This document shows positions 5,906 through 51,610 of a stretch of 64,000 nucleotides of DNA, piece after piece. A program made the translations under genes and the position numbers. The stretch is from a bacterium (lineage in GTDB: Bacteria > UBA8248 > JACPRG01 > G963555815). How positions within the stretch are numbered: position 1 is the first letter of the stretch; each line of letters starts with the position of its first letter. Location of the stretch: positions 928,001-992,000 of the forward strand of contig CBDHDG010000006.1 in NCBI GenBank assembly GCA_965261595.1, read 5' to 3'. A model generated the notes under the pieces. That model saw only the letters and a list, made by a program, of their open reading frames with translations. It did not search any database and was not told the DNA's origin.

Positions 5906-7648
5906 ATGGACGCAGGTTCTCCATTCCGGTTCAAAATCGCAACCGAGCCGTGGGAATTCGCGCAGATCCACCGACTGAACTACAAGACCTTCGTAGAGGA
6001 AATTCCTCAACACGCTGCGAACCGGCTCAGGACTCGGGTCGACAAGTTCCATCATGAGAATACGTACGTCATTTGCCTCCTCGGTGATCGGGTGGTCGGC
6101 ATGGTGGCCGTTCGATCCGGGCACCCCTTCTCGCTCGACGAGAAGCTCGAAGACCTGGATTCCTACCTGCCCCCCGGCCGTTCGGTCTGCGAGCTCCGGC
6201 TCCTTTCCATCGAAAGGGATTACCGCAGGGGCGTCCTCTTCCATGGACTCCTGAGAGAGTCGGTGCTGCACTGCACCGCTCAAGGGTATGACCTGGTCGT
6301 CATCTCCGGGGCCCTGAGCCAACAGAAACTGTATGAGCGCCTCGGGTTCGTGCCGTTCGGACCCGTCGTCGGAACCCCCTCGGCGAGGTATCAACCCAGG
6401 TTCGTGACCTCGGAGAGATTTCTGGAAAAGGCCGGGAAGTTCCTCCCGGACCTCACCGGAGACTCCGCCGCTTCGAACCCCGTGAACCTGTTGCCCGGTC
6501 CGGTCGAAATTCGCCCGGAAGTCCGAAAGGCCTTCCAGGAAGCTCCAATTTCCCATCGGTCGGACATCTTCATGCGGGACTTTCACCAGACGAAGCGGCT
6601 CCTTTGCGAACCGCTCGGTTCCGGACGGGTCGAGATCTTTTCCGGTTCGGGCACGCTGGCGAACGATGTCATCGCCGGCCAACTGTCGTTGATCCCGGGG
6701 CGGGGGGGGCAAGGGTTGATCCTGAGCAACGGCGAATTCGGAGAGCGGTTGATCCTCCACGCAACGCGCTTTCGACTCCCATTCGAGACATTCCGCCTCG
6801 AATGGGGGGACACGTTCGATCGTGCACCGGCTCCGGCGTCTCCTGGACCGGGGTTCAAACATCCGGTGGTTGTGGGCCGTTCATTGCGAAACCTCGACCG
6901 GCGTCCTGAACGACATCGAGGCGTTGAAGGCGATCTGTGCGGAAAGAGACATCCGCCTCTGTATGGATTGCATCAGCTCGATCGGCACGGTCCCCATCGA
7001 CCTGGACGGCGTGTACCTCGCATCCGGGGTGAGCGAAAAGGAATCGGCGCGTTCCCGGGGTTGTCGCTGGTGTTCTATCACCACAAGGTCCTTCCGGCCC
7101 CGTCCGCGCTTCCGGGGTGTCTGGACCTCGGCCTCTACAGAGAAAGAGACGGGGTGCCGTTCACGATTTCCTCGAATCTTCTCTATGCCTTGCGCTCGGC
7201 CGTGAAGCGGCTTCACCAAAAAAGGCCTTTCGATGACCTTGCCGCACTCTCGATCCGGCTGAGGTCCGGGTTGCTCGAGGTCGGGTTTCGAATTGTCGCC
7301 CCCGAGGCGCACGCCTCCCCCGCTGTGGTCACGATCCCGTTGCCCGAATCGATAAGCTCCGAGGAGGTCGGGCGTCGGCTGGAAGAGCGCGGCTATCTCC
7401 TGCATTACAAGAGCGGCTATTTGGTCGAGCGAAACTGGATTCAAATCTGTCCAATGGGAAAATTTCCGAAGGAGGCGTTGTGTTCCCTGCTGAAGTCCCT
7501 GAGGGAGGCGGCCAACCCTGAAAATTTTCGTGATGTCACTCAGCCGTGGAGACCGCCCGAGAATTTTTTGGCTGATTTTGTGAGTGATTATTCACGCATA
7601 AATCCGCCGGAGCTTTCGGCTGATCGCGGGAAGGACCCAATTCAATGA
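5906..7648 (+). CDS. GNAT-like acyltransferase fused to class V PLP-dependent aminotransferase (two compensating frameshifts)
   Basis: N-terminal QIHRLNYKTFVEEIPQH...ELRLL; C-terminal LLPGPV, SHRS, SNGEFGERL; the conserved VHCETSTG...DCISSIG segment lies in the 6822..7205 frame between shifts at ~6828 and ~7036. Confidence 0.8.
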   Translation: MDAGSPFRFKIATEPWEFAQIHRLNYKTFVEEIPQHAANRLRTRVDKFHHENTYVICLLGDRVVGMVAVRSGHPFSLDEKLEDLDSYLPPGRSVCELRLLSIERDYRRGVLFHGLLRESVLHCTAQGYDLVVISGALSQQKLYERLGFVPFGPVVGTPSARYQPRFVTSERFLEKAGKFLPDLTGDSAASNPVNLLPGPVEIRPEVRKAFQEAPISHRSDIFMRDFHQTKRLLCEPLGSGRVEIFSGSGTLANDVIAGQLSLIPGRGGQGLILSNGEFGERLILHATRFRLPFETFRLEWGDTFDRAPAPASPGPGFKHPVVVGRSLRNLDRRPERHRGVEGDLCGKRHPPLYGLHQLDRHGPHRPGRRVPRIRGERKGIGAFPGLSLVFYHHKVLPAPSALPGCLDLGLYRERDGVPFTISSNLLYALRSAVKRLHQKRPFDDLAALSIRLRSGLLEVGFRIVAPEAHASPAVVTIPLPESISSEEVGRRLEERGYLLHYKSGYLVERNWIQICPMGKFPKEALCSLLKSLREAANPENFRDVTQPWRPPENFLADFVSDYSRINPPELSADRGKDPIQ

Positions 7649-7876
7649 GCCGCAGGCGCTCGAATCGATGCTTCGTCGTTGGGGCTGACATCCGGTTGGC
7701 CTTCTGGAGAGACTTCCGAAGGAGCAATAGGGACGGTCTGTCATGCGAAGGTCTTCCGTAGACGTCTCGCCCGCATTCGGCGAGGCCGTCCGAGAAATGA
7801 CCGATGCCCCTGACCCTCCGAATAGAGTGCAGTCCGATCGGAAGCGTGAAACCTATCCCCGTGAGGAGGAGAACTC

Positions 7877-8344
7877 ATGAAAGGTGAAAGCAAGACCCGG
7901 TTACCGTTGTTCATGGCCCTTGTCTTGGGTTTGGTCCAGGGCTGCGGGTGGGCATTTCATTACCCTCCCACACATGAGCCTCCCTTTCCGGAAATGTCGG
8001 CGCCTGGGAAAGCGTCGCCTCCCATCCCTCTGAAAGTGGCCTTCAAGGTCAGTGAGGATCTTCGGGGTCCAAGCGCAGCCATCTACACGGATTATACCGA
8101 AAAGTTTCACCGGGCCTTCGTGAATGGATTCATCTCGGCGAGACCTTTCTCCAAGGTCGTGGAATTGAAGGGAGATATCAAGATGGCCGACTACGACCTG
8201 TATCTGGAGATTGGCTTTGAGCCCGAGTATGATTTTCGAAACAAGTACTACGAGATTTCAAGCGGGTCCCTTCTCCCCGGAGCCCGCTATCAATTCGGCA
8301 CCTGGAAGTCCGCATCTTCGCAACCTCAAATCGAGAGTTCTTAA
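7877..8344 (+). CDS. Hypothetical lipoprotein, possibly truncated
   Basis: GAGGAG RBS; signal peptide with lipobox-like LVQGC. Confidence 0.5.
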   Translation: MKGESKTRLPLFMALVLGLVQGCGWAFHYPPTHEPPFPEMSAPGKASPPIPLKVAFKVSEDLRGPSAAIYTDYTEKFHRAFVNGFISARPFSKVVELKGDIKMADYDLYLEIGFEPEYDFRNKYYEISSGSLLPGARYQFGTWKSASSQPQIESS

Positions 8345-8921
8345 AGCGTTACTACTTCAAGACAAAAACCAAAGGTGTGGGCTGGGTCTGGGGGTTCTCC
8401 ACACTGCCCAGCGTGACGATGGAGGATTGGGGGTACGGGTTTGCACGGCGATTGGGATTGAGGCTATTGCAAGACCGAGGGTTCTTCGAAGGACTCGAAC
8501 AACCGTCAAAGCCCCGAAAATCGTAGGTTCCCGGCCCTTGCGAAACCGATGGCAGCCGCTGCCGGGCGCGTGCAGGATTCAGCCGACCCGCATCCCGTCT
8601 CTTGAGCAACCGTGAGCGCTTTTTCATGCAGGAGCGGGGCGCGGGGTCTTATTTGCAGGCGCCATCCAAAGAGTTTGCCGTTGGCGGCTTGTCCGCCGGC
8701 GCCTCCTCCTGTCTTCTCCCGATGGCACGGGAGGGTGACTTTCACCCACCCGCACGCTCGCACCCATTTCCGTGGCTCAAATCACCCGCTCGTTCCCCCC
8801 GTCCACCGGGACCTGCGCGGCGGTGGTCTTGGCGAAGAGCGGACCGCACATCTCCGCGGCCGGCTTCAGCAGGTGGTCCGGACGCACGGGCGCTAAAGGC
8901 CAGGCCCACCGACGCGCTCCC

Positions 8922-9857
8922 CTACGGCAAGAGCGCCTTCTCCACCGTGGCGTGAACGCCTTTGTTTCCATTCACCACCTGGGTGATGCGGAGGTCCACG
9001 GCGGCGGTGCAGAAGACGTAGGCGTCTTCCCGGCTGAGGCCGTGCTCATCGCTCAGAAAATTGATCATCTCCCGCAGGGCGGTCTTGGACGCGTTGTCCA
9101 GATCCCGGTCGAACCCCATCGTGATGTAGTGCGTCGGCGTCTCGGACCGGGGGAGGCTCAGCTTCATGTCCTTGCGGACGGTGAGGCGCACCGTCCCATC
9201 CATGCAGGTCTCGACGGCCGTCTGGTTGACCTCGCCGTCGCCCTGGACGGCGTGGCCGTCTCCGATGGAAAACCCCGCGCCCGGCTTCCAAACGGGAAGG
9301 TACACGGTGCTTCCGGCCACCAAGTCCTTGTTGTCCAGGTTCCCCCCGTGGACGTGGGGCGGGTTGCTGGGGATCTCGCCGAAACTTTCCGGCGGACAGA
9401 CGCCCAACTGGCCGAAGAACGGCTTGAGCGGAACCTTCCATCCCGAGACCACCTCGGCGGTTCTCCCCTCCAAGTCCAGGTCGATGACGCGGCAGGTGTT
9501 GTACGGGAAATCTTCCGGCAGGGCCCCGCCGAAAATCCGAATCAAATTCCATGCCCAATCGCACGCGAGTTTGATCTCCTCGACGGCGACCTCCAGGACG
9601 TCCCCCGGCTCGGCCCCTTCCACCGTGATGGGTCCCGTGAGGATGTGCGGACCGGCGCCGTGCCGGGACCGGGCGAGGATGTCGGTGAGCCCTTTCGGGA
9701 TTCTCCCGGCGTCGTCCGGCAGGAAGCCGTCTCGGCCCGAGACAGTGTGCGCGATGACCCGGTCGCCCGACTCGACGGTCAGGACGGAATCGAGCCGGTA
9801 ATCGTAGTAGCCGTAATGGACCGTTTCGGGCGTCGCGAAGAGCTCGTGGGTCTTCAT
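8922..9857 (-). CDS. Acetamidase/formamidase family protein
   Basis: HILTGPITVEGAEPGD, GGNLD and GDGHAVQGDGE motifs. Confidence 0.9.
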   Translation of the reverse strand: MKTHELFATPETVHYGYYDYRLDSVLTVESGDRVIAHTVSGRDGFLPDDAGRIPKGLTDILARSRHGAGPHILTGPITVEGAEPGDVLEVAVEEIKLACDWAWNLIRIFGGALPEDFPYNTCRVIDLDLEGRTAEVVSGWKVPLKPFFGQLGVCPPESFGEIPSNPPHVHGGNLDNKDLVAGSTVYLPVWKPGAGFSIGDGHAVQGDGEVNQTAVETCMDGTVRLTVRKDMKLSLPRSETPTHYITMGFDRDLDNASKTALREMINFLSDEHGLSREDAYVFCTAAVDLRITQVVNGNKGVHATVEKALLP

Positions 9858-13984: not shown

Positions 13985-14472
13985 CGTTTCACCCGGAATG
14001 GGTTCACCGGTCACTGAGCCGCCTCCGGAATGTTTGACGGCCCTTGCGGCCGCCGTTCCCCGCCTCCCGCTTCCGGGCGGGGGGATTGGGGGGGCGCGCA
14101 CCGCGGAATGTTATCCCTCCCGCGCCGTGAAGTCCACCGGGCGGCCGCCTCAGTGAATCCCGATTTGCGTCGGCTGAGCGGCGCCGGCGATCGTGAGAAC
14201 AGGCGCTGTCAAACGTCTGCCCCGCGCCGTCCGGATGAAGAGAATCATTCCCCGGAACCGGCGTCACAACCGACTCCTTCGGCGCTTCGTTTTTCACGCG
14301 CGGAGAAAATTGGGGACACCCCAGGTCGTCCGCCCAAAGACCCCGGGCGGCCGACGACGAAACCGAGGATTGCCTTGCCTCCTCTGCATCTCTCACATAT
14401 ATTGGCAAGGGAAGACCACAAATTCCGATTTCCCGGGCCGATTCATCAGATCATCAGGAGGACGGCGATTTC

Positions 14473-15063
14473 ATGAGCACCCTGAAGGAACAGTTGTTTC
14501 TGGAGTTCGCTTCCGATGCGCTCTCCGGTCTCACGGACGAATTTCGCGGGAAGTTCACGTCCAAGAAGGGGGATCGGTTCAACATCCAAGGCGTCACATA
14601 CGAGTTGGGCTCGCCGTTGCTCGAAGAGAATGTCATTCGATTCGAGATCAGCTCCAAGATCCCCCAGGACGAGTTTGCCGAAAACATGACGCAGACCAAA
14701 TACTTCAACGCCGTCAAGGCGATTGTCCAGAAGGGCAAGAAAAAGCCGCAGGCCATCGACATGGAGAACATCGTCCGGGAAACCCGTGATGACTCCCGCA
14801 AAGAGCGCGATTACGTGAAGGTGACCTACCAATACAAAGAAAAAGACCTCTACAGCGATAAAGAGATCGCCAAGTCCGTTGCGGAGATTTCCAAAGGCGC
14901 TTCCAAGCTGAAATTGCCCGAGGTGCCCGGCATCCCCACACTGGGGGGCCGCGTTCTCCTGGTGGCCCTCCGGGACAACCTCCGGCGGATGGCCGGAGAG
15001 AATGTCCAGCTTCTCATCGACGCCAACAACCAGGTCCGGAAAAAAATGAAGGCGCGCAAATAG
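14473..15063 (+). CDS. Hypothetical protein, Lys-rich
   Basis: AGGAGG RBS; strong GC3 bias; no recognisable motif. Confidence 0.7.
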   Translation: MSTLKEQLFLEFASDALSGLTDEFRGKFTSKKGDRFNIQGVTYELGSPLLEENVIRFEISSKIPQDEFAENMTQTKYFNAVKAIVQKGKKKPQAIDMENIVRETRDDSRKERDYVKVTYQYKEKDLYSDKEIAKSVAEISKGASKLKLPEVPGIPTLGGRVLLVALRDNLRRMAGENVQLLIDANNQVRKKMKARK

Positions 15064-44273: not shown

Positions 44274-44305
44274 TTGACTCCGTACCCGACTCCGGGGATT
44301 ATCTT
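44274..44305 (+). promoter_or_regulatory. MerR-type promoter/operator with a long spacer
   Basis: TTGACT (44274-44279), 20-nt spacer CCGTACCCGACTCCGGGGAT with imperfect dyad CCGTAC..CTCCGG, TATCTT (44300-44305); begins like the Tn501/Tn21 PmerT TTGACTCCGTAC. Confidence 0.82.
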
Positions 44306-44366
44306 GACGATCAGCCTTTGACCACGCCGATCGGCGACACGCCTTCTCCCCTAGGAGCTGAGGATA

Positions 44367-44612
44367 ATGGAACAGAAAGAGGTTACCCTATACACATCGA
44401 GCTTGTGAGCGTCTTGCAGAGGCGTGAAAGAGTTTCTTTCACATCACAGCATTCCCTACCAGGAGCACTTGATCGACCAAGACCAGGAAGCGATGAACAC
44501 CTTGGTTGAGAAAACCGGACGCAAAGCCACTCCCGTGCTTCTCATTGGCGAGGAAACCGTGGTGGGCTTTGACCGTCGAAAAATCTCGGACCTTTTGGAG
44601 ATTGGTCGATGA
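44367..44612 (+). CDS. Glutaredoxin/NrdH-like selenoprotein (U-A-S-C; Sec at TGA 44406-44408)
   Basis: GAGG RBS then ATG; MEQKEVTLYTSSL-U-ASC-RGVKEFL...KTGRKATPVLLIGEETVVGFD; SECIS-like hairpin at 44424-44442. Confidence 0.85.
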
Positions 44613-44968
44613 ACGCTTCAGAGCGAAGGCTCCGCTGCCCTGGCTGCGAAATGGACATTCCAGTCCCGTGGGACGCCAAGAACGGCGACGTTACTGAGTG
44701 TGAGAACTGCGCGGGTGTTCTGTTTCGCCTCTCCGAACAGGACGGCGGGGACATCCTGCGGCTCGTGCTGCTTGTCTCGTGTCCTTTCTGCGAGGAGACA
44801 ATCCCGGTGGACGATAACACGCCCGAGGGGACCGTCATTCGTCACGGGGGGGCGGAATTTTCGCTGACGAAGGAGTTCGGCGCTTTCTCGCTGGAGCTCG
44901 CCGGCGGCCAAAGACCCGGCCTGGTTCCGGCAGCGGACGCGGACAAAGCGCGAGGGACGGCAGGTTGA
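44609..44968 (+). CDS. Tandem zinc-ribbon protein (LysW-like fold)
   Basis: CPGC...CENC then CPFC...; ATGA overlap with the glutaredoxin gene. Confidence 0.65.
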   Translation: MNASERRLRCPGCEMDIPVPWDAKNGDVTECENCAGVLFRLSEQDGGDILRLVLLVSCPFCEETIPVDDNTPEGTVIRHGGAEFSLTKEFGAFSLELAGGQRPGLVPAADADKARGTAG

Positions 44969-45267
44969 AGCCGCAAAGATCAATCACGGGAAAAATCATG
45001 CTGGGCGCGGCCTTCTTTCTGTGCCCCTGCCACCTGCCCATCTACCTGGCCCTGTTGGGCGGAACGGCCGCGGGCGCGCTGCTCTCCGAGAACGCGTACA
45101 CCGCCGGGGCCGTCCTGGCCCTCGCGTTCCTCGCGGCGCTCGTTCTGGGGTTGCGCATGCCGGGGAAGAACATTTCCAAGGCCGGGGCCGCCTCGGAGCG
45201 GGACCCATCCGATACCGGAGGGCAACCTCTCCGGCACGGTCGAATCCGGCGGGCGCCCCTTGGATGA
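44965..45267 (+). CDS. merE: MerE-like mercury transporter
   Basis: CPCHLPI...GGTAAGALLSE signature. Confidence 0.82.
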   Translation: MKPQRSITGKIMLGAAFFLCPCHLPIYLALLGGTAAGALLSENAYTAGAVLALAFLAALVLGLRMPGKNISKAGAASERDPSDTGGQPLRHGRIRRAPLG

Positions 45268-45279
45268 GGGAGAATCGCG

Positions 45280-45618
45280 TTGCGCTTGAAAGAGGTATTT
45301 CCCGGAGCGGCCGGCGTCCTGACTTCCTTGGGGGCCTCCATCTGCTGCCTCCTCCCGCTCGCGGTGATTTACCTGGGACTCGGAACGGGATCCTTCATGG
45401 CAACGACCATGAAGTACCGCCCCATCGTATTTCCATTGGGGGTGATCGGCCTCGGCGCCGGTTACTTCCTTTACTTCCGGGAGCGAAAACGCTGTCGACG
45501 CGTGGCGTGCAGAATGGCGGGCTCCAAAATCAACCTGGCCTTGCTGGCGGCGGCGACGATCATCATGGCGGGTGTCGTGTGGGCCGATTTCTTCTCGGGC
45601 GTCCTGGCCATGATGTGA
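45280..45618 (+). CDS. merT: MerT-like mercuric transporter
   Basis: ASICCLLPL in TM1, YRP, cytoplasmic C....C pair, three TM helices. Confidence 0.85.
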   Translation: MRLKEVFPGAAGVLTSLGASICCLLPLAVIYLGLGTGSFMATTMKYRPIVFPLGVIGLGAGYFLYFRERKRCRRVACRMAGSKINLALLAAATIIMAGVVWADFFSGVLAMM

Positions 45619-45635
45619 CGCAAAAGGGGGAAGCG

Positions 45636-45968
45636 ATGTCAGGCGTGCATCGTCCGTGGAATGGGTTGAAATGTGTGGTTCTGGCGGCCGTCTTCGCCAT
45701 GGCGCTCGGCGGGTGCGAAGGAGACCCGGTTCCATCGGCCGAAGCCGGGGAGCGGGTGACTCTGAGGGTTTCGGGGATGACGTGAGGCGCCTGAGCGGTC
45801 ACCGCGAAACCAGCCTTGGAAAGGCTGGATGGAGTGAGAAAAGCCCGGGTGAGCCTCTCGAAGGGAGAGGCGTACGTCACGTATGACCCAAGCCGGGTCA
45901 CGGTGGCGCAGATGATTGCGGCCATCAACCGCCTGGGGTTCAAAGGCGGCATGAAAGAAGGATCGTAG
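45636..45968 (+). CDS. merP: MerP-like periplasmic HMA protein with two putative selenocysteines (GMT-U-G-A-U)
   Basis: Lipoprotein-like leader ending LGGC; VTLRVSGMT-TGA(45783)-GGC-GCC-TGA(45792)-AVTAKPALERLDGVRKARVSLSKGEAYVTYDPSRVTVAQMIAAINRLGF; hairpin at 45810-45828. Confidence 0.85.
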
Positions 45969-46073
45969 GCGGGCCTCGATGGGTCCGCGGAGAGGATTTC
46001 CGCTGATCGGATACGGCCGATGGTCCGGGTGGTCTCCTTCGGCCGGGATACGTTGAGTGGGGGCATGGACAAT

Positions 46074-46301
46074 ATGGAAGATAGAAAGCTGCTTCGCACG
46101 GGAGGCGCGGGGACGGTTGTTGCCGCGATTTGCTGTTTCACGCCGGCCCTCGTCCTGCTGTTCGGGGTGATGGGTCTATCGGCCTGGGTCGGTTGGCTGG
46201 ATTACGTCCTTTGGCCCGCGCTTGTGATATTTGCCGGAATGACGGTCTATGCCCTTATCCGGCTGAGGAAGAAACCATCCGTCCACCGCAAAGGGACCTG
46301 A
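46074..46301 (+). CDS. merF: MerF-like mercury transporter
   Basis: KLLRTG..GTVVAAICCFTP.LV.L...GLSA..GWLDYVL.PAL signature. Confidence 0.9.
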   Translation: MEDRKLLRTGGAGTVVAAICCFTPALVLLFGVMGLSAWVGWLDYVLWPALVIFAGMTVYALIRLRKKPSVHRKGT

Positions 46302-46802
46302 TTCAAAGAAAGGCCGAATAATGAGGTTTTGGTCTTTTCTTCTTTCCATCAAGACACATCTCCCTTCGCCAAGACCAAAACTTTCCTCGCGAGCCGATCA
46401 AACCAATAGTTGAGGGGTCCAAGATGGCTGAGTCCTTGCGTTCCAAAGAGGGTTCCTTGACATTGATTGCCTTGATCGCGGGAGGGGTCTTGCCACTCCT
46501 GATCGTTTTTGGCTCCGCCCGTCTACTGCCCATGCCGACCCTTTTCTGGGCTGTCGGCGTCCCGGCGGAAATCGTTCTTTTTGGGGTTCTGCTCTACGCT
46601 CGTTCGGCCGGACCGGAGCGCTTGTATCGGAGGCTTTGGGTGGGGTGATCGGCGGCGTATTGCTCACCTTGTCATTGGATGCCGTCCGAACCGCAGGGGT
46701 CAACATCGGTTACCTTCCGGATTCCGTGTCGATGTTCGGGCGCTTGGAGTTGACCCGGTTTGGTGGACACCTGATGATTTGGGGGTAAAGGAGGTGTTCA
46801 CG

Positions 46803-47117
46803 ATGCCACAGACTCACCCACGCTATCCAATGGAGTTCCGCTGCCAGATGGTAGAGTTGGTCCGGGCGGGACGCACGCCCGAGGCGCTGGCGCACGAGTT
46901 CGAGCCCTCGGCGCAGACGATCCGCACCTGGGCCCATCAAGCCGACGTTGACGAGGGGCGTCGCAAAGACGGGCTCACGAGCGATGAGCGGGAGGAGTTG
47001 CGCCGACTTCGCCGCGAGAACCGACAGCTCCGCCAGGAGCGGGAGATCTTAGCAAAAGCCGCGGCCTGGTTTGCTCGGGAGACCGATTCGATCCCGTCCG
47101 GATCTACGGGTTCGTGA
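46803..47117 (+). CDS. IS3 transposase OrfA
   Basis: HTH followed by ELRRLRRENRQLRQEREILAKAAAWF. Confidence 0.9.
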   Translation: MPQTHPRYPMEFRCQMVELVRAGRTPEALAHEFEPSAQTIRTWAHQADVDEGRRKDGLTSDEREELRRLRRENRQLRQEREILAKAAAWFARETDSIPSGSTGS

Positions 47118-47965
47118 GGGCGAACCAGGCCATGTATCGGACCGCCACCATGTGCCGGGTGCTGGGCGTCTCCTCCAGCGGCTACTACGCGTGGCGCAGG
47201 CGCGCGCCGTGTGCCCGCTCGTGTGCCGATCGGGCGCTCACCAAACGCATTCAGGCGATCCACGAGCGTTCTCGGGGGACTTACGGCGTGCCGCGCGTCC
47301 ATGCCGAGTTGGAGGCTGAGGGAGTGCGTGTGGGCCGCAAGCGCGTCGCCAGGCTGATGCGTGGGGCGGGACTTGCGGGCGTCAGTCGGCGCAAGGGAGC
47401 GCGCACGACGCAGCGCCGGCAGGAGGCGCGGCCGGCCCCTGATCTGGTGGACCGCAACTTCACGGCCGAGGCCCCCGACCGGCTGTGGGTGGCCGACATC
47501 ACCTACGTTCCGACATGGGCGGGGTTTTTGTATCTGGCCGTGGCGCTCGATGCGTTCAGCCGGCGCATCGTGGGGTGGTCGATGGCCACACACCTGCGGG
47601 CCGAGTTGGTGCTCGACGCGCTCGACATGGCGCTGTACAAGCGCCGTCCCCGGGCCGTCATCCACCACTCCGACCAGGGCAGCACGCAGTACACCTCGGT
47701 CGCCTTTGGGCAGCGCTGCCGGCAGGCGGGCGTGCGTCCCTCCATGGGTTCGGTCGGGGACTGCTACGACAACGCGCTGTGTGAGAGCTTTTTCGCCACG
47801 CTGGAGTGCGAGCTCCTCGCTCGCCACAGTTTCCGCACCCGGGCCGAGGCGCGCATGGAGGTGTTCGGGTTCATCGAGGGCTTCTACAACCCGCATCGTC
47901 GGCACTCCTCCATCGACAACCTGTCACCCGTTAACTACGAAAGGAGACAACAACGCACACCCTGA
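47114..47965 (+). CDS. IS3 transposase OrfB (DDE)
   Basis: WVADITY, HHSDQGS and DNALCESFF motifs. Confidence 0.93.
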   Translation: MRANQAMYRTATMCRVLGVSSSGYYAWRRRAPCARSCADRALTKRIQAIHERSRGTYGVPRVHAELEAEGVRVGRKRVARLMRGAGLAGVSRRKGARTTQRRQEARPAPDLVDRNFTAEAPDRLWVADITYVPTWAGFLYLAVALDAFSRRIVGWSMATHLRAELVLDALDMALYKRRPRAVIHHSDQGSTQYTSVAFGQRCRQAGVRPSMGSVGDCYDNALCESFFATLECELLARHSFRTRAEARMEVFGFIEGFYNPHRRHSSIDNLSPVNYERRQQRTP

Positions 47966-48289
47966 AAACCCAAGTGCTTAACTCTCCACGAAACCGGGGT
48001 AAGTCCATTGCGTTTGGAGTGGTCTATTCAATCCTTTTTGGAAAGACCCGATGGTGGGGCGCCGTGCTTTATAGCGTCTTCTTTGTAGAGCTTGGCATGA
48101 TGACCCTTCCACCGATGGCGAAAATGATGGGACCTTTCGGCGTCAACAAGTTCGGCACAATTTGGAACGGGATGTTCATAACCACATTGCTCGCTCACGC
48201 CGCGATGGGGGTTGTGCTCGGTGTTGTGATTCAGAAGTGGGGAAAGCACCCCGGTTTGTTTTTCTCAAGTAGAAGCATAGGCGCGTAGT

Positions 48290-48538
48290 GTGGTGCTATC
48301 GGAACTTCATATCGAGGGCATGACGTGACCCAAGTGCGTCAAACGGGTCCGTGAGTCCCTGAAAAAATCCCCGGGAGTTCAGGACGTCCAAGTTTCTTTG
48401 GAGACGGGACGGGCCGTTATTTGGATGAAAAAAGGAAGCCTACCCACAGAGGACCTCCTCGAACAGGTGGTGGAAGCGGCCAAAGGCGCCTTCCATTCCT
48501 ACGTCGCCCGCTGGGTTAAACCCCCCTCTTCGAATTAA
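48290..48538 (+). CDS. Stand-alone HMA (CopZ/NmerA-like) selenoprotein (GMT-U-P-K-C; TGA 48326-48328)
   Basis: Absent from the ORF track; MVLSELHIEGMT-U-PKC-VKRVRESLKKSPGVQDVQVSLETGRAVI...; SECIS hairpin weak. Confidence 0.8.
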
Positions 48539-48687
48539 GCCGCATCCGCTGATTCGGAGAGTCATCAGCACCAAATCCCGAACCCTTTTCGGACTCCACG
48601 CAGATGAGACAATCAGAGAGACCCCGGCTGTCATCCAATGCTCCTCGAAGCCGATCTGGATTTTGAGGGAAGCGTTTGGAGAGCGAC

Positions 48688-50044
48688 ATGGCTTTAAAGT
48701 CATACGACCTCATCGTCATCGGAACGGGGTCTGCGGCCTCTGCGGCAGCATCCGAATGCCGCACCGCCGGGTGGACCGTGGCGGTTATCGATTCCCGTCC
48801 TTACGGGGGGACATGCGCCCTGCGCGGCTGCGACCCCAAGAAGGTGCTCGTCGCCGCGGCCGAGGCCCTCCACTGGGGGCATCGCTTGAGGGGCCGCGGG
48901 GTTCGTCCCGGCGATGCGCGGATCGACTGGCCCGAGTTGATGGACTTCAAGCGCACGTTCACCGAATCCGTGGCGCAGAGCCACGAGCGGTGGTTCGCCG
49001 AAGTCGGGATCGACGGATACCACGGGCGGGCGAAGTTTATCGGCCCCGTCTCTGTTCAAGTCGGCGGCGACGATCTGGAGGCCAAACACGTCTTCATCGC
49101 CTCCGGCGCCATGCCGGCCAGGCTCGGGATCCCGGGAGAAGGGCATCTGATCGCGAGCGAAGACTTCCTTGAGCTGGACGAGCTGCCGGAGCGTATCGTT
49201 TTCGTGGGGGGCGGCTACATCTCCATGGAGTTCGCGACCGTTTCCGTCTGCGCCGGAGCTGAGGTCACCGTCCTTCACCGGGGTCCGCGACTCCTGCGTG
49301 GATTCGATCCCGGCTCGGCGGACTTGGTCGCGGAGGCGGCTCGCGGGAGCGGCATCGACCTGAAGTTGGAGACTCGGGTCGAAAGCATAACAAAGACTGC
49401 CGGCGGCTTTGTCGTTGAGGCATCCTCACCCGCGGGATCGCAAACGGTTGAAGCCGACTTGGTGGTGCACGGCGCCGGTCGGGTGGCTGAGATTGAGGAT
49501 CTCGACCTGGGAGCGGCCGGCGTGGAGCGGGGGAAGCGGGGAGTATTGGTGAACGAGTATCTGCAAAGCACCTCGAATCCGGCGGTCTATGCAGCGGGAG
49601 ACGCGGCGCGAAACGGAAGGACAGCCTCTCACGCCCGTGGCAGGGGTCGAAGGAGGGGTTGTGGCAGCAAATCTATTAAATGGGAACAAAGTTAAGCCTG
49701 ATTACACCGGAACGGCAACAGTGGCATTCACATTGCCGCCGATTGCCGCGGTGGGACTGAGAGAAGATGAAGCCAGGAAGAAGGGGCTCAAGTTTCAGGT
49801 GAATTTCCAGGACACGTCTGGATGGTATTCGACACGGCGCATGGGCGAGAAATACTCGGCATCCAAGGTGTTGGTCGAGGAAGACACGGGGCGGCTGCTC
49901 GGTGCGCACCTCCTCGGGCCGTCTGCGGATGAGCTGATCAACCTCTTTGCGCTTGCCATCCGCCACGGTCTCACCGCCGAGGGTCTAAAGGAGGTGATCT
50001 TCGCGTATCCGACGCACGCGTCTGACGTGGGTTATATGGTCTGA
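48688..50044 (+). CDS. Pyridine nucleotide-disulfide oxidoreductase, glutathione-reductase-like (frameshift at ~49608)
   Basis: GTGSAA, GGTCALRGCDPKK, GGGYI and YAAGD motifs, then LTPVA...YPTHASD in the 49589 frame; lacks the NmerA domain and the C-terminal Cys-Cys of MerA. Confidence 0.85.
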
Positions 50045-50100
50045 AGAGCACGCCCTTTGTCCAATTTCGTGATGAGAAAGGGTCATTTGGGAGATGTCAA

Positions 50101-50717
50101 ATGGAAACCTCAAAATTGCCTCAGCTCAGAGAGCATTTCAATCAGGCATGCGATTCCGTGAGGGTTCTTACAATCCTCTCTCCTACCTAACCCGTATGTC
50201 ACTACGGGCATGGAGTTGTCCGGAAGCTCTTCGAGGAGATTGACGCGAATGCGCTCAAGGGTTTTTCAATATGGCTTCCCATCATGGACGGGGACAACGC
50301 CGATGCCGCGAGGGCCGAATCAGAGAATTTCCCGGATGAACGGGTAGAGCACAGTTGGGATTCCGAAGGACAATTTGGCCGGCTCTTTGCGAAGTTTCTC
50401 AATTTGAAAGGTGTCGCGTGGGATGTTCACTTGCTCTACGCGCCGGGTGTCACCTGGGGTGTGGATGAGCCGCCCAAACCTGCATTCTGGATGCACCAAC
50501 TTCCTCCAGTAACGGGAGCCGATGGGAAACTTCTTTGAACCCAGGTAGATTTTCACACGAGCTGATGAATCTCCTTGGAAGAGAGGATCCGCATATGGCT
50601 TGGGATATGGCCTTTATGTTGCACGTTGGCGGTATTGGCGGGGTCATGAGGGAGAGGGCTCAGTCTTCACTGGAAGAGGTCCTCAAGGCCGTCGATCCTA
50701 CGAAGGAAGGACCGTGA
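50101..50717 (+). CDS. Thioredoxin-fold protein with TAA at the first position of an SPT-x-PV-C motif (plus a frameshift at ~50536)
   Basis: METSKLPQLREHFNQACDSVRVLTILSPT-TAA(50188)-PVCHYG...IWLPIM.GD...WD...AWDVHLLYAPG..W...FWMHQL in a single frame; hairpin at 50205-50222. Confidence 0.65.
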
Positions 50718-50721
50718 ATCG

Positions 50722-51150
50722 ATGAAGAATTGCCCGGAGGTTCCTATGGAATCCTTGACGATCGAAAAGGTCGCCCGCGGGGCGGGTGTGAACGTCGAGA
50801 CGGTTCGCTACTACGAGCGCAGGGGGCTGATCGAGCGGCCAACCAGCCGGCGGGGGGCTTACCGGGTCTATCCGTCCGAGACCGTCGGCCGCATCCTGAG
50901 CATCAAGCGCGCCCAGCGGCTCGGGTTCTCCCTGGATGAGATCAAAGAGCTGTTGGCCATGCGATCGGACGCCCGGGCCCGGTGCGGCGACGTGCGCGTC
51001 CAGGCCGAGCGGAAGATGGCCGAGATTGAGGAGAAGATCAAGGCCCTGCGGGCCGTGAAGAAATCGCTCGGCAAGCTCGCCGACGCCTGCCGGAGGGAGC
51101 TGCCTGTGACGGAGTGCCCGATTCTGAAAAACCTGAGCGGGGTTTCCTGA
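50722..51150 (+). CDS. merR: Hg(II)-responsive MerR-type regulator
   Basis: VNVETVRYYERRGL HTH; three Cys (ARCGD, DAC...ECPI) spaced like MerR C82/C117/C126. Confidence 0.88.
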   Translation: MKNCPEVPMESLTIEKVARGAGVNVETVRYYERRGLIERPTSRRGAYRVYPSETVGRILSIKRAQRLGFSLDEIKELLAMRSDARARCGDVRVQAERKMAEIEEKIKALRAVKKSLGKLADACRRELPVTECPILKNLSGVS

Positions 51151-51514: not shown

Positions 51515-51610
51515 TCTTCGGCGGGCCGGCTGTCTGGGGGGGAGATGATTTCAGACCCAGACCCGTGCCTTTGCGTCCCGGCCTCTCGACCGGTTTGCCC
51601 TTATCGAAAC
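51515..51610 (-). ncRNA. Cyclic di-GMP-I (GEMM) riboswitch
   Basis: Minus strand TTCGATAAGGGCAAACCGGTCGAGAGGCCGGGACGCAAAGGCACGGGTCTGG...CCAGACAGCCGGCCCGCCGAA matches the GEMM pattern GGCAAACC-GNRA-GGGACGCAAAG...GCCGAA. Confidence 0.85.

Follow-up and report, generated by a model that had tools for sequence, protein, structure and literature searches.

In the bacterial model of Zhang and Gladyshev (2005), as given in the 2026 review PMC13188914, the selenocysteine insertion sequence, or SECIS, is a hairpin with a stem of 4-16 base pairs (bp), a loop of 3-9 nucleotides (nt) and a folding energy no higher than -7.5 kcal/mol, lying 16-37 nt from the UGA and carrying a G as the first or second base of its loop, most often as GG or GU. 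The same review lists a UxxU metal-binding family with two selenocysteine (Sec, U) residues, as well as glutaredoxin selenoproteins with a UxxC motif. A Sec-containing 'mercuric transport protein MerP' was represented by two sequences in the Global Ocean Sampling (GOS) survey (PMC2398784). For UXXU hydrogenases, in silico work has suggested that a single downstream SECIS controls both UGA codons (PMC13582414, 2026). Here we analyse a 64-kb stretch of bacterial DNA (contig CBDHDG010000006.1, positions 928,001 to 992,000 of the forward strand; hereafter the window, numbered from its first letter), in which a glutaredoxin-like gene (grx) and a merP-like gene of a mer-like operon carry in-frame TGA codons followed by hairpins of the same geometry.

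The operon (44367-51150, + strand) contains four interrupted reading frames, each with its stop at a redox or metal-binding cysteine position. They belong to grx, the merP-like gene, a second gene with an HMA domain and a gene for a thioredoxin-fold protein. The best overall explanation, to which we assign a probability of roughly 65%, is that the grx and merP hairpins are SECIS elements, that the merP hairpin serves both UGA codons of its gene, and that a SECIS is not supported at either of the remaining sites. That the two hairpins are bacterial SECIS elements is, on the comparative evidence set out below, very probable. Both belong to known selenoprotein families, and the single-hairpin idea is already in print for another family.

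The grx and merP hairpins

The features on which the argument depends are as follows.

44367-44612, + strand: glutaredoxin-like selenoprotein gene (grx) with the motif S-L-U-A-S-C; Pfam PF00462 at 48 bits against a cut-off of 22.9; true stop TGA at 44610-44612
44406-44408, + strand: predicted Sec codon (UGA) of grx, aligned with the first Cys of the redox motif
44424-44442, + strand: candidate grx SECIS hairpin, GTGAAAGA-GTT-TCTTTCAC; 8-bp stem and loop GUU, beginning 15 nt past the TGA, with the loop starting 23 nt after the UGA
45636-45968, + strand: gene for a MerP-like lipoprotein with an HMA domain and the motif G-M-T-U-G-A-U; NCBIfam NF041115 at 98.1 bits against a curated cut-off of 95, Pfam HMA at 54 bits
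45783-45785, + strand: first predicted Sec codon of merP (UGA1); double-TGA HMA frames in 116 of the 117 matches listed
45792-45794, + strand: second predicted Sec codon of merP (UGA2), on the same evidence
45810-45828, + strand: candidate merP SECIS hairpin, CCAGCCTT-GGA-AAGGCTGG; 8-bp stem, beginning 15 nt past UGA2, with the loop starting 32 nt after UGA1 and 23 nt after UGA2

An earlier note on this DNA, made from the letters alone, had described after the grx TGA and after the second merP TGA a run of 15 nt and then an 8-bp hairpin with a 3-nt loop. The coordinates and sequences of both are correct, and RNA folding, which the note had proposed as a check, retains both hairpins in the RNAfold minimum-energy structure. 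The geometry it held to be shared by the two (a 3-nt loop with G first, starting at 23 nt) is real and recurs in all four syntenic operons found in other genomes. Perfect hairpins with an 8-bp stem and a 3-nt loop number five in the whole window, against a mean of 2.2 in dinucleotide shuffles, and two of the five, those of grx and merP, begin exactly 15 nt past a recoded TGA. The SECIS of Escherichia coli fdhF has an internal loop or bulged U; the stems in the window are perfect, with neither evident. Both hairpins resemble the bacterial model in their in-frame position, G[G/U]N 3-nt loop, 8-bp upper stem and spacing, and the merP hairpin differs from it in following two UGA codons 9 nt apart (PMC13188914).

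The grx protein has its best NCBIfam match in the YruB family, under that family's cut-off, and falls under every other NCBIfam cut-off as well, including those of the Uxx-star selenoprotein models. It shares with the described glutaredoxin selenoproteins (PF00462, UxxC; PMC13188914) the motif, the domain and the downstream hairpin, but is YruB/NrdH-like and fixed in an operon with merT and merP. Four loci (L030, L074, L049 and L027) have the gene order grx, zinc ribbon, merT-like, merP. Their grx homologues all carry TGA at the same codon and, at the same offset, a hairpin with the loop GUU, and across the five sequences 95% of cells in the stem pair. The core of the element, GAGTTTCTTTC, is invariant at the nucleotide level though the proteins are only 38-44% identical. 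All five genes of these GC-rich genomes keep in this core TTT (26% of the window's Phe codons) and CTT (11.6% of its Leu codons). For the putative grx element such nucleotide conservation is a stronger argument than covariation. Its loop, stem and spacing (GUU, 8 bp, 23 nt) fall within the published ranges.

Relatives of the merP-like gene were found in 185,579 species genomes by the pattern V/I-x-G-M-T-TGA-x-x-TGA followed by G-V 12 codons on, which gave at least 117 matches where about nine would be expected by chance (a hand estimate). Full flanks were available for 80 of the 117 loci, so the census and synteny counts given here are lower bounds. HMA reading frames are present in 116 of the 117 matches listed, the exception (L060) being a chance match. 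NF041115 recognised 116 of 116 sequences at E<=1e-5 (the window and 115 loci, with L060 and the short-flanked L108 left out). The metagenome-assembled genomes (MAGs) among the matches listed are labelled Acidobacteriota, Planctomycetota, Rokuibacteriota, Methylomirabilales, Desulfobacterota-type and others. The window protein shares with the NF041115 UxxU metal-binding (seleno)proteins its score above the cut-off and a GMT-U-x-x-U motif in place of the CxxC of HMA domains; a 64-residue cut of it scores 94.6 bits against the same model. Most retrieved members, many of them from MAGs labelled Acidobacteriota, have two hairpins, whereas the clade of the window has a lipoprotein signal, a mer-like operon and a single hairpin.

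The merP hairpin was compared across the window and 21 loci, hand-picked and not blind, by protein resemblance (G-M-T-U-G/A/M-x-U ... A-L-E-G-L-x-G-V). The alignment of these 22 sequences is gap-free. In its helix (columns 28-35 with 39-46), 84.7% of the 176 cells pair, and four pairs and ten cells are changed on both sides. The covariation score was reached by none of 500 shuffles, and pairing falls to 28-59% if the partner is slid by one to three columns. RNAalifold, run with no structure supplied, predicted this hairpin alone in the 66 nt after UGA1. Some of the covariation is synonymous: Leu UUG is found with Arg AGG in the window, and Leu CUG with Gly GGG in others. Elsewhere in the stem, Ala GCU or GCG is partnered by GAG or GCG. 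The first loop base, the third position of a Leu codon, is G in all 22 sequences. A perfect-stem SECIS filter applied to UGA2 is passed by 87% of 116 Sec-type genes, against one of nine Cys-type HMA genes of the same loci.

The energy of the merP hairpin is -11.3 kcal/mol, or -16.3 kcal/mol with a possible lower stem spanning 45799-45837, and it fits the published SECIS model in loop, stem, spacing and energy. The hairpins of both genes lie inside the coding sequence, and with a UGA in the A site, 15 nt upstream, the stem would be placed just outside the mRNA entry channel of the ribosome. SelB, loaded with Sec-tRNA(Sec), would then attach through its C-terminal domain to the G-first 3-nt loop and deliver selenocysteine instead of termination. 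In merP, the ribosome would advance 9 nt after the first insertion, leaving the stem intact and 15 nt from the codon to be read, so that a second SelB complex could use the same hairpin.

Decoding of two UGA codons nine nucleotides apart

It is probable, judging from spacing and from comparison among clades, that the one merP hairpin serves both UGA codons. Its two spacings, 32 and 23 nt, are both inside the published range of 16-37 nt. In other clades the arrangement is different. A first hairpin (HP1) opens its loop about 21 nt past UGA1; in the second (HP2) the loop (GUC, UGGAU or CGGGY) starts about 32 nt past UGA2. Across 95 sequences of these clades, 81.7% of cells in HP1 and 90.8% in HP2 pair, with covariation scores reached by none of 500 shuffles. 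The hairpin registers differ within this mixed set, for which RNAalifold gave four pairs at -0.58 kcal/mol, and an explicit two-helix structure was used for these figures. L001, L020, L056 and L033 are examples of loci with tandem hairpins, which occupy offsets 18-54 counted from the HMA gene's first TGA.

A census at fixed registers over 117 sequences, including the window, assigned 19 to the middle hairpin only, 59 to HP1 with HP2, 29 to HP2 only, two to HP1 only and eight to neither; in several lineages of the HP2-only class, HP1 is present in a shifted register. The middle hairpin never occurs together with HP2 (0 of 117). HP2 lies 32 nt from UGA2 and 41 nt from UGA1, which is beyond the range, and for HP1 the distances are about 21 nt (UGA1) and 12 nt (UGA2), the latter too short, as the hairpin would be inside the ribosome. 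Neither tandem hairpin spans both codons, and the second hairpin therefore appears exactly where one cannot cover both.

The chances are about even that the UxxU HMA family (NF041115) uses two mutually exclusive ways to decode UGA codons 9 nt apart, namely a central hairpin or a tandem pair. We would put it no higher or lower that the central hairpin of the window's clade acts at 32 and 23 nt, within the tolerance of SelB, while the tandem pair, commonest elsewhere, acts at about 21 and about 32 nt. No paper describing tandem bacterial SECIS hairpins at UxxU motifs emerged from a literature search of limited coverage. The nearest parallel is in the UXXU-type Group 4 [NiFeSe] hydrogenases, which likewise have two UGAs two codons apart and for which a single SECIS has been proposed (PMC13582414). 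The HMA proteins are a different family and show the tandem-hairpin alternative too; the evidence is in silico in both cases.

Two further structures near the double UGA were noted. Three close relatives, L097, L074 and L049 (the last two labelled Rokuibacteriota), have a 6-bp hairpin, UGAGGG...CCCUCA, at offsets 0-18 from the first TGA, with the first UGA in the stem and the second in the loop; the window has no such hairpin. The other is a short stem, GCGG-TCA-CCGC (45795-45805, + strand), which the earlier note had put forward as a possible aid to UGA1. It has the sequence and position described, but in the 22 sequences only 51.1% of its cells pair, against 44.8% in shuffled alignments, and we have rejected it. 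The RNAalifold consensus does not contain it, its loop has no G and its distance from UGA1 is 13 nt.

An alternative is that the merP hairpin drives UGA2 only, at 23 nt, and that UGA1 is read by near-cognate read-through (Trp or Cys) or by the Cys-inserting tRNA-ReC (selC*), so that the product is a CxxU or WxxU protein. The spacing of 23 nt is also that of grx, in the window and in all four syntenic operons, which suggests a preferred distance. In addition, tRNA-ReC inserts Cys at SECIS-marked UGA codons, genes resembling it occur in about 56% of UXXU hydrogenase genomes against about 2.3% of other Sec-type genomes, and either UGA may be read as Cys (PMC13582414). We nonetheless consider this alternative unlikely. 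The first-position UGA is kept in at least 116 genes across several phyla, which is hard to explain if it were leaky; a distance of 32 nt is within the published range (PMC13188914) and is the one HP2 uses for UGA2 in the tandem type. Decoding by tRNA-ReC would still rely on the same hairpin, and no tRNA gene was found in the window or in the 30 related loci scanned.

Background folds and coding constraint

Several observations weigh against reading the grx and merP hairpins as SECIS elements, with the merP one shared by two codons. The 8-bp stem of grx alone reaches -7.1 kcal/mol, short of the -7.5 threshold, and -11.3 kcal/mol only with a lower stem. Its covariation over five sequences amounts to a single compensatory pair (U-A in the window, C-G elsewhere), which 91 of 500 shuffles equal and which is not significant. 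The earlier note had named a lack of covariation in homologues, together with read-through unaffected by disruption of the hairpins, as what would speak against its proposal; on covariation merP answers in its favour (0 of 500 shuffles). Part of the conservation of the merP hairpin comes from coding constraint, because it overlies a conserved A-L-E-G/R-L peptide. The 22-sequence set was chosen by hand, and the structure under test was drawn from the window's own sequence. As for the tandem type, the loop G of HP1 is often absent (AAACAA, for example), which makes its role as a second SECIS ambiguous. Work on E. coli fdhF is said to have found a strict spacing between the UGA and a minimal hairpin, which sits poorly with one hairpin acting at both 23 and 32 nt. 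Genes for SelA, SelB, SelD and tRNA(Sec) are all missing from the 64-kb window, as are fdhA and any tRNA gene, and a tRNA scan of 30 related loci did not find tRNA(Sec). The TGA of the second HMA gene may also be a Sec codon, and no SECIS is found at that site. Finally, a SECIS filter that allows bulges is passed by 51% of 250 TGA triplets sampled from the window.

The last of these concerns how much a fold can say. The window is 62% GC and SECIS-like folds are common in it as background; energy alone proves little. Under the bulge-allowing filter the background median is -7.6 kcal/mol and about 40% of background sites reach -10 kcal/mol, while a perfect-stem filter at -7.5 kcal/mol is passed by 9.8% of the 1788 TGA triplets in the window. 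On the flexible filter merP scores -16.3 kcal/mol, grx -11.3, the hairpin after the TAA of the thioredoxin-fold gene -7.6 and the second HMA site -2.5. At gathering thresholds, Rfam gave a riboswitch (below) as its sole match and no SECIS family; relaxing the threshold to E<=10 across 44300-50400 produced two matches at chance level and again no SECIS family.

Such background, together with the conserved peptides that both hairpins overlie (K-E-F-L-S in grx and A-L-E-R/G-L in HMA helix 1), could be taken to mean that the hairpins are by-products of protein sequence with no decoding role. Cys-type relatives can also form SECIS-like folds (PMC13582414). This is very improbable, however, given that third positions of codons either do not vary or change together with the base they pair with, that the rare TTT and CTT are retained in five of five grx genes, that the loop G is invariant, and that the perfect-stem filter separates Sec-type from Cys-type HMA genes as described above.

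The distal operon and wider significance

In order, the operon consists of grx, genes for a LysW-like zinc-ribbon protein, a MerE-like and a MerT-like membrane protein, the merP-like gene, merF, a small membrane-protein gene interrupted by an IS3-family element, the second HMA gene, a MerA/glutathione-reductase-like oxidoreductase gene, the thioredoxin-fold gene and merR. Features downstream of merF, with the aptamer beyond merR, are listed here.

46424-46788 and 47974-48288, + strand: flanks of the membrane-protein gene cut by the IS3 element; weak similarity to DUF6789
46803-47965, + strand: IS3-family element between merF and the second HMA gene; HTH_Tnp_1 and rve domains in two frames
48290-48538, + strand: second HMA gene, motif G-M-T-U-P-K-C if its in-frame TGA (48326-48328) is read as Sec; Pfam HMA at 50 bits
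48676-50044, + strand: pyridine-nucleotide disulfide oxidoreductase gene (MerA/glutathione-reductase-like), with a +1 frameshift near 49609-49612
50101-50538, + strand: thioredoxin-fold gene, with an in-frame TAA (50188-50190) at the first Cys/Sec of the motif S-P-T-[C/U]-x-x-C, where the window reads S-P-T-x-P-V-C
50205-50222, + strand: hairpin CGGGCA-UGGAGU-UGUCCG after the TAA; six pairs, one of them G-U, at -7.6 kcal/mol, the same as the median energy for 250 background TGA sites
50722-51150, + strand: merR
51516-51608, - strand: c-di-GMP-I-GGC riboswitch aptamer just past merR; Rfam RF03167 at 70 bits against a gathering score of 59

The zinc-ribbon gene's ATG shares an ATGA (44609-44612) with the true stop of grx, which suggests that the two genes may be translationally coupled; the zinc-ribbon gene adjoins grx in all four syntenic loci. 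A repeat search at the ends of the IS3 element gave neither terminal inverted repeats nor a target duplication. In the oxidoreductase gene, tblastn shows that CGAA beside a short A run replaces one codon of the 55%-identical homologue in L025. Either a true mutation or a fault of the assembly could account for this frameshift.

In the second HMA gene, the TGA coincides exactly with the motif's first Cys, as it does in the UxxC HMA selenoproteins already known, a position that favours Sec over a random lesion. The earlier note had reported only a weak, imperfect stem at this site, and that description holds: within 16-37 nt after the TGA the best SECIS-like hairpin has +1.7 kcal/mol (perfect stems) or -2.5 kcal/mol (bulges allowed), both worse than the background median of -7.6. 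Of Sec-type relatives none was found: a word-index search gave no relatives of the protein, and a regular-expression search of all the loci gave no other UxxC or CxxU HMA gene. The codon may stand for Sec under a signal not recognised here, or it may be one more lesion in the part of the operon beyond the IS3 insertion.

No significant Pfam or NCBIfam family was found for the thioredoxin-fold protein. A profile built from eight sequences matched 2524 representatives at E<=0.001, and 135 of the best 150 have CxxC after an S-P-T-like turn. The predicted structure (predicted local distance difference test score, pLDDT, of 88) resembles TlpA/ResA/DsbE-type thioredoxin folds with a template modelling (TM) score of about 0.5. 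Seven homologues occur in six UxxU HMA loci (L017 at 7312-7671 and 7943-8344, L020 at 14329-14709, L056 at 8662-9042, L075 at 2334-2714, L009 at 9131-9523 and L064 at 6635-7036). At the position of the window's TAA four of the seven have TGA; two have CxxC and one, that of L009, has CxxU. In three of the four TGA-type homologues the fold gives a hairpin whose 3-nt loop opens with G, 17 nt after the UGA (offset 20); in the fourth, L075, the same stem was not predicted but can be read from the sequence by eye. This hairpin has no counterpart in the window's copy, whose own hairpin has its loop at offset 23-28; the protein is closest to a Cys form (39% identity). The S-P-T-[C/U]-x-x-C thioredoxin-fold group may be an uncatalogued Sec/Cys family, whose TGA-containing members adjoin UxxU HMA genes.

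The TAA is most likely a lesion or a sequencing error, because a single G-to-A change turns TGA into TAA, four of the seven homologues have TGA, and the same stretch contains the IS3 element and the frameshift. The simplest reading of the distal half of the operon as a whole is decay or sequence error. The earlier note had set the hairpin at 50205-50222 beside those of grx and merP. Its sequence and coordinates are right, but it does not stand out from background: its energy is at the background level, and the hairpin of the Sec-type relatives is a different one at another offset. The TAA could in principle be a Sec codon guided by this hairpin and decoded by an additional tRNA(Sec) whose anticodon is UUA: it stands exactly at the family's Sec/Cys position, the hairpin conforms to the model on paper (6-nt loop UGGAGU, its second base G; spacing of 20 nt; -7.6 kcal/mol), and Sec recoding of UAG and UAA in nature has been reported by Mukai et al. 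(2016), as cited in PMC10778597. This is highly improbable, since the three other interrupted genes of the operon use TGA and two Sec tRNAs would be required, and since the hairpin is out-competed by another at 50191-50208 in the minimum-energy fold. The TGA codons of the Sec-type relatives, with their different hairpin, and the damage to neighbouring genes speak against it as well.

The IS3 insertion, frameshift and TAA of the distal half might be extended to the whole operon, making the in-frame stops of grx and merP lesions too, but this is scarcely credible: TGA occupies the same codons in four of four syntenic grx genes and at least 116 HMA genes of other genomes, conserved hairpins follow the grx and merP codons, and the MerP-like protein passes a curated selenoprotein family model, so that decay is already contradicted for these two genes and is left only for the second HMA gene.

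The standard code splits or truncates all four interrupted genes of the operon, which is a concern for annotation. In GC-rich genomes, energy-based SECIS filters say next to nothing: roughly half of the background sites get through them. The usual picture of the bacterial SECIS is of one hairpin per UGA at a constrained distance, and the decoding of closely spaced double Sec codons has only recently been raised (PMC13582414). The window offers a compact case, as the same SelB must read grx at 23 nt and merP at 23 and 32 nt, while sister clades use two hairpins. If the merP hairpin does serve both codons, a single bacterial SECIS would drive two successive SelB deliveries three codons apart, and the UxxU HMA family would be a natural experiment mapping the spacing tolerance of SelB.

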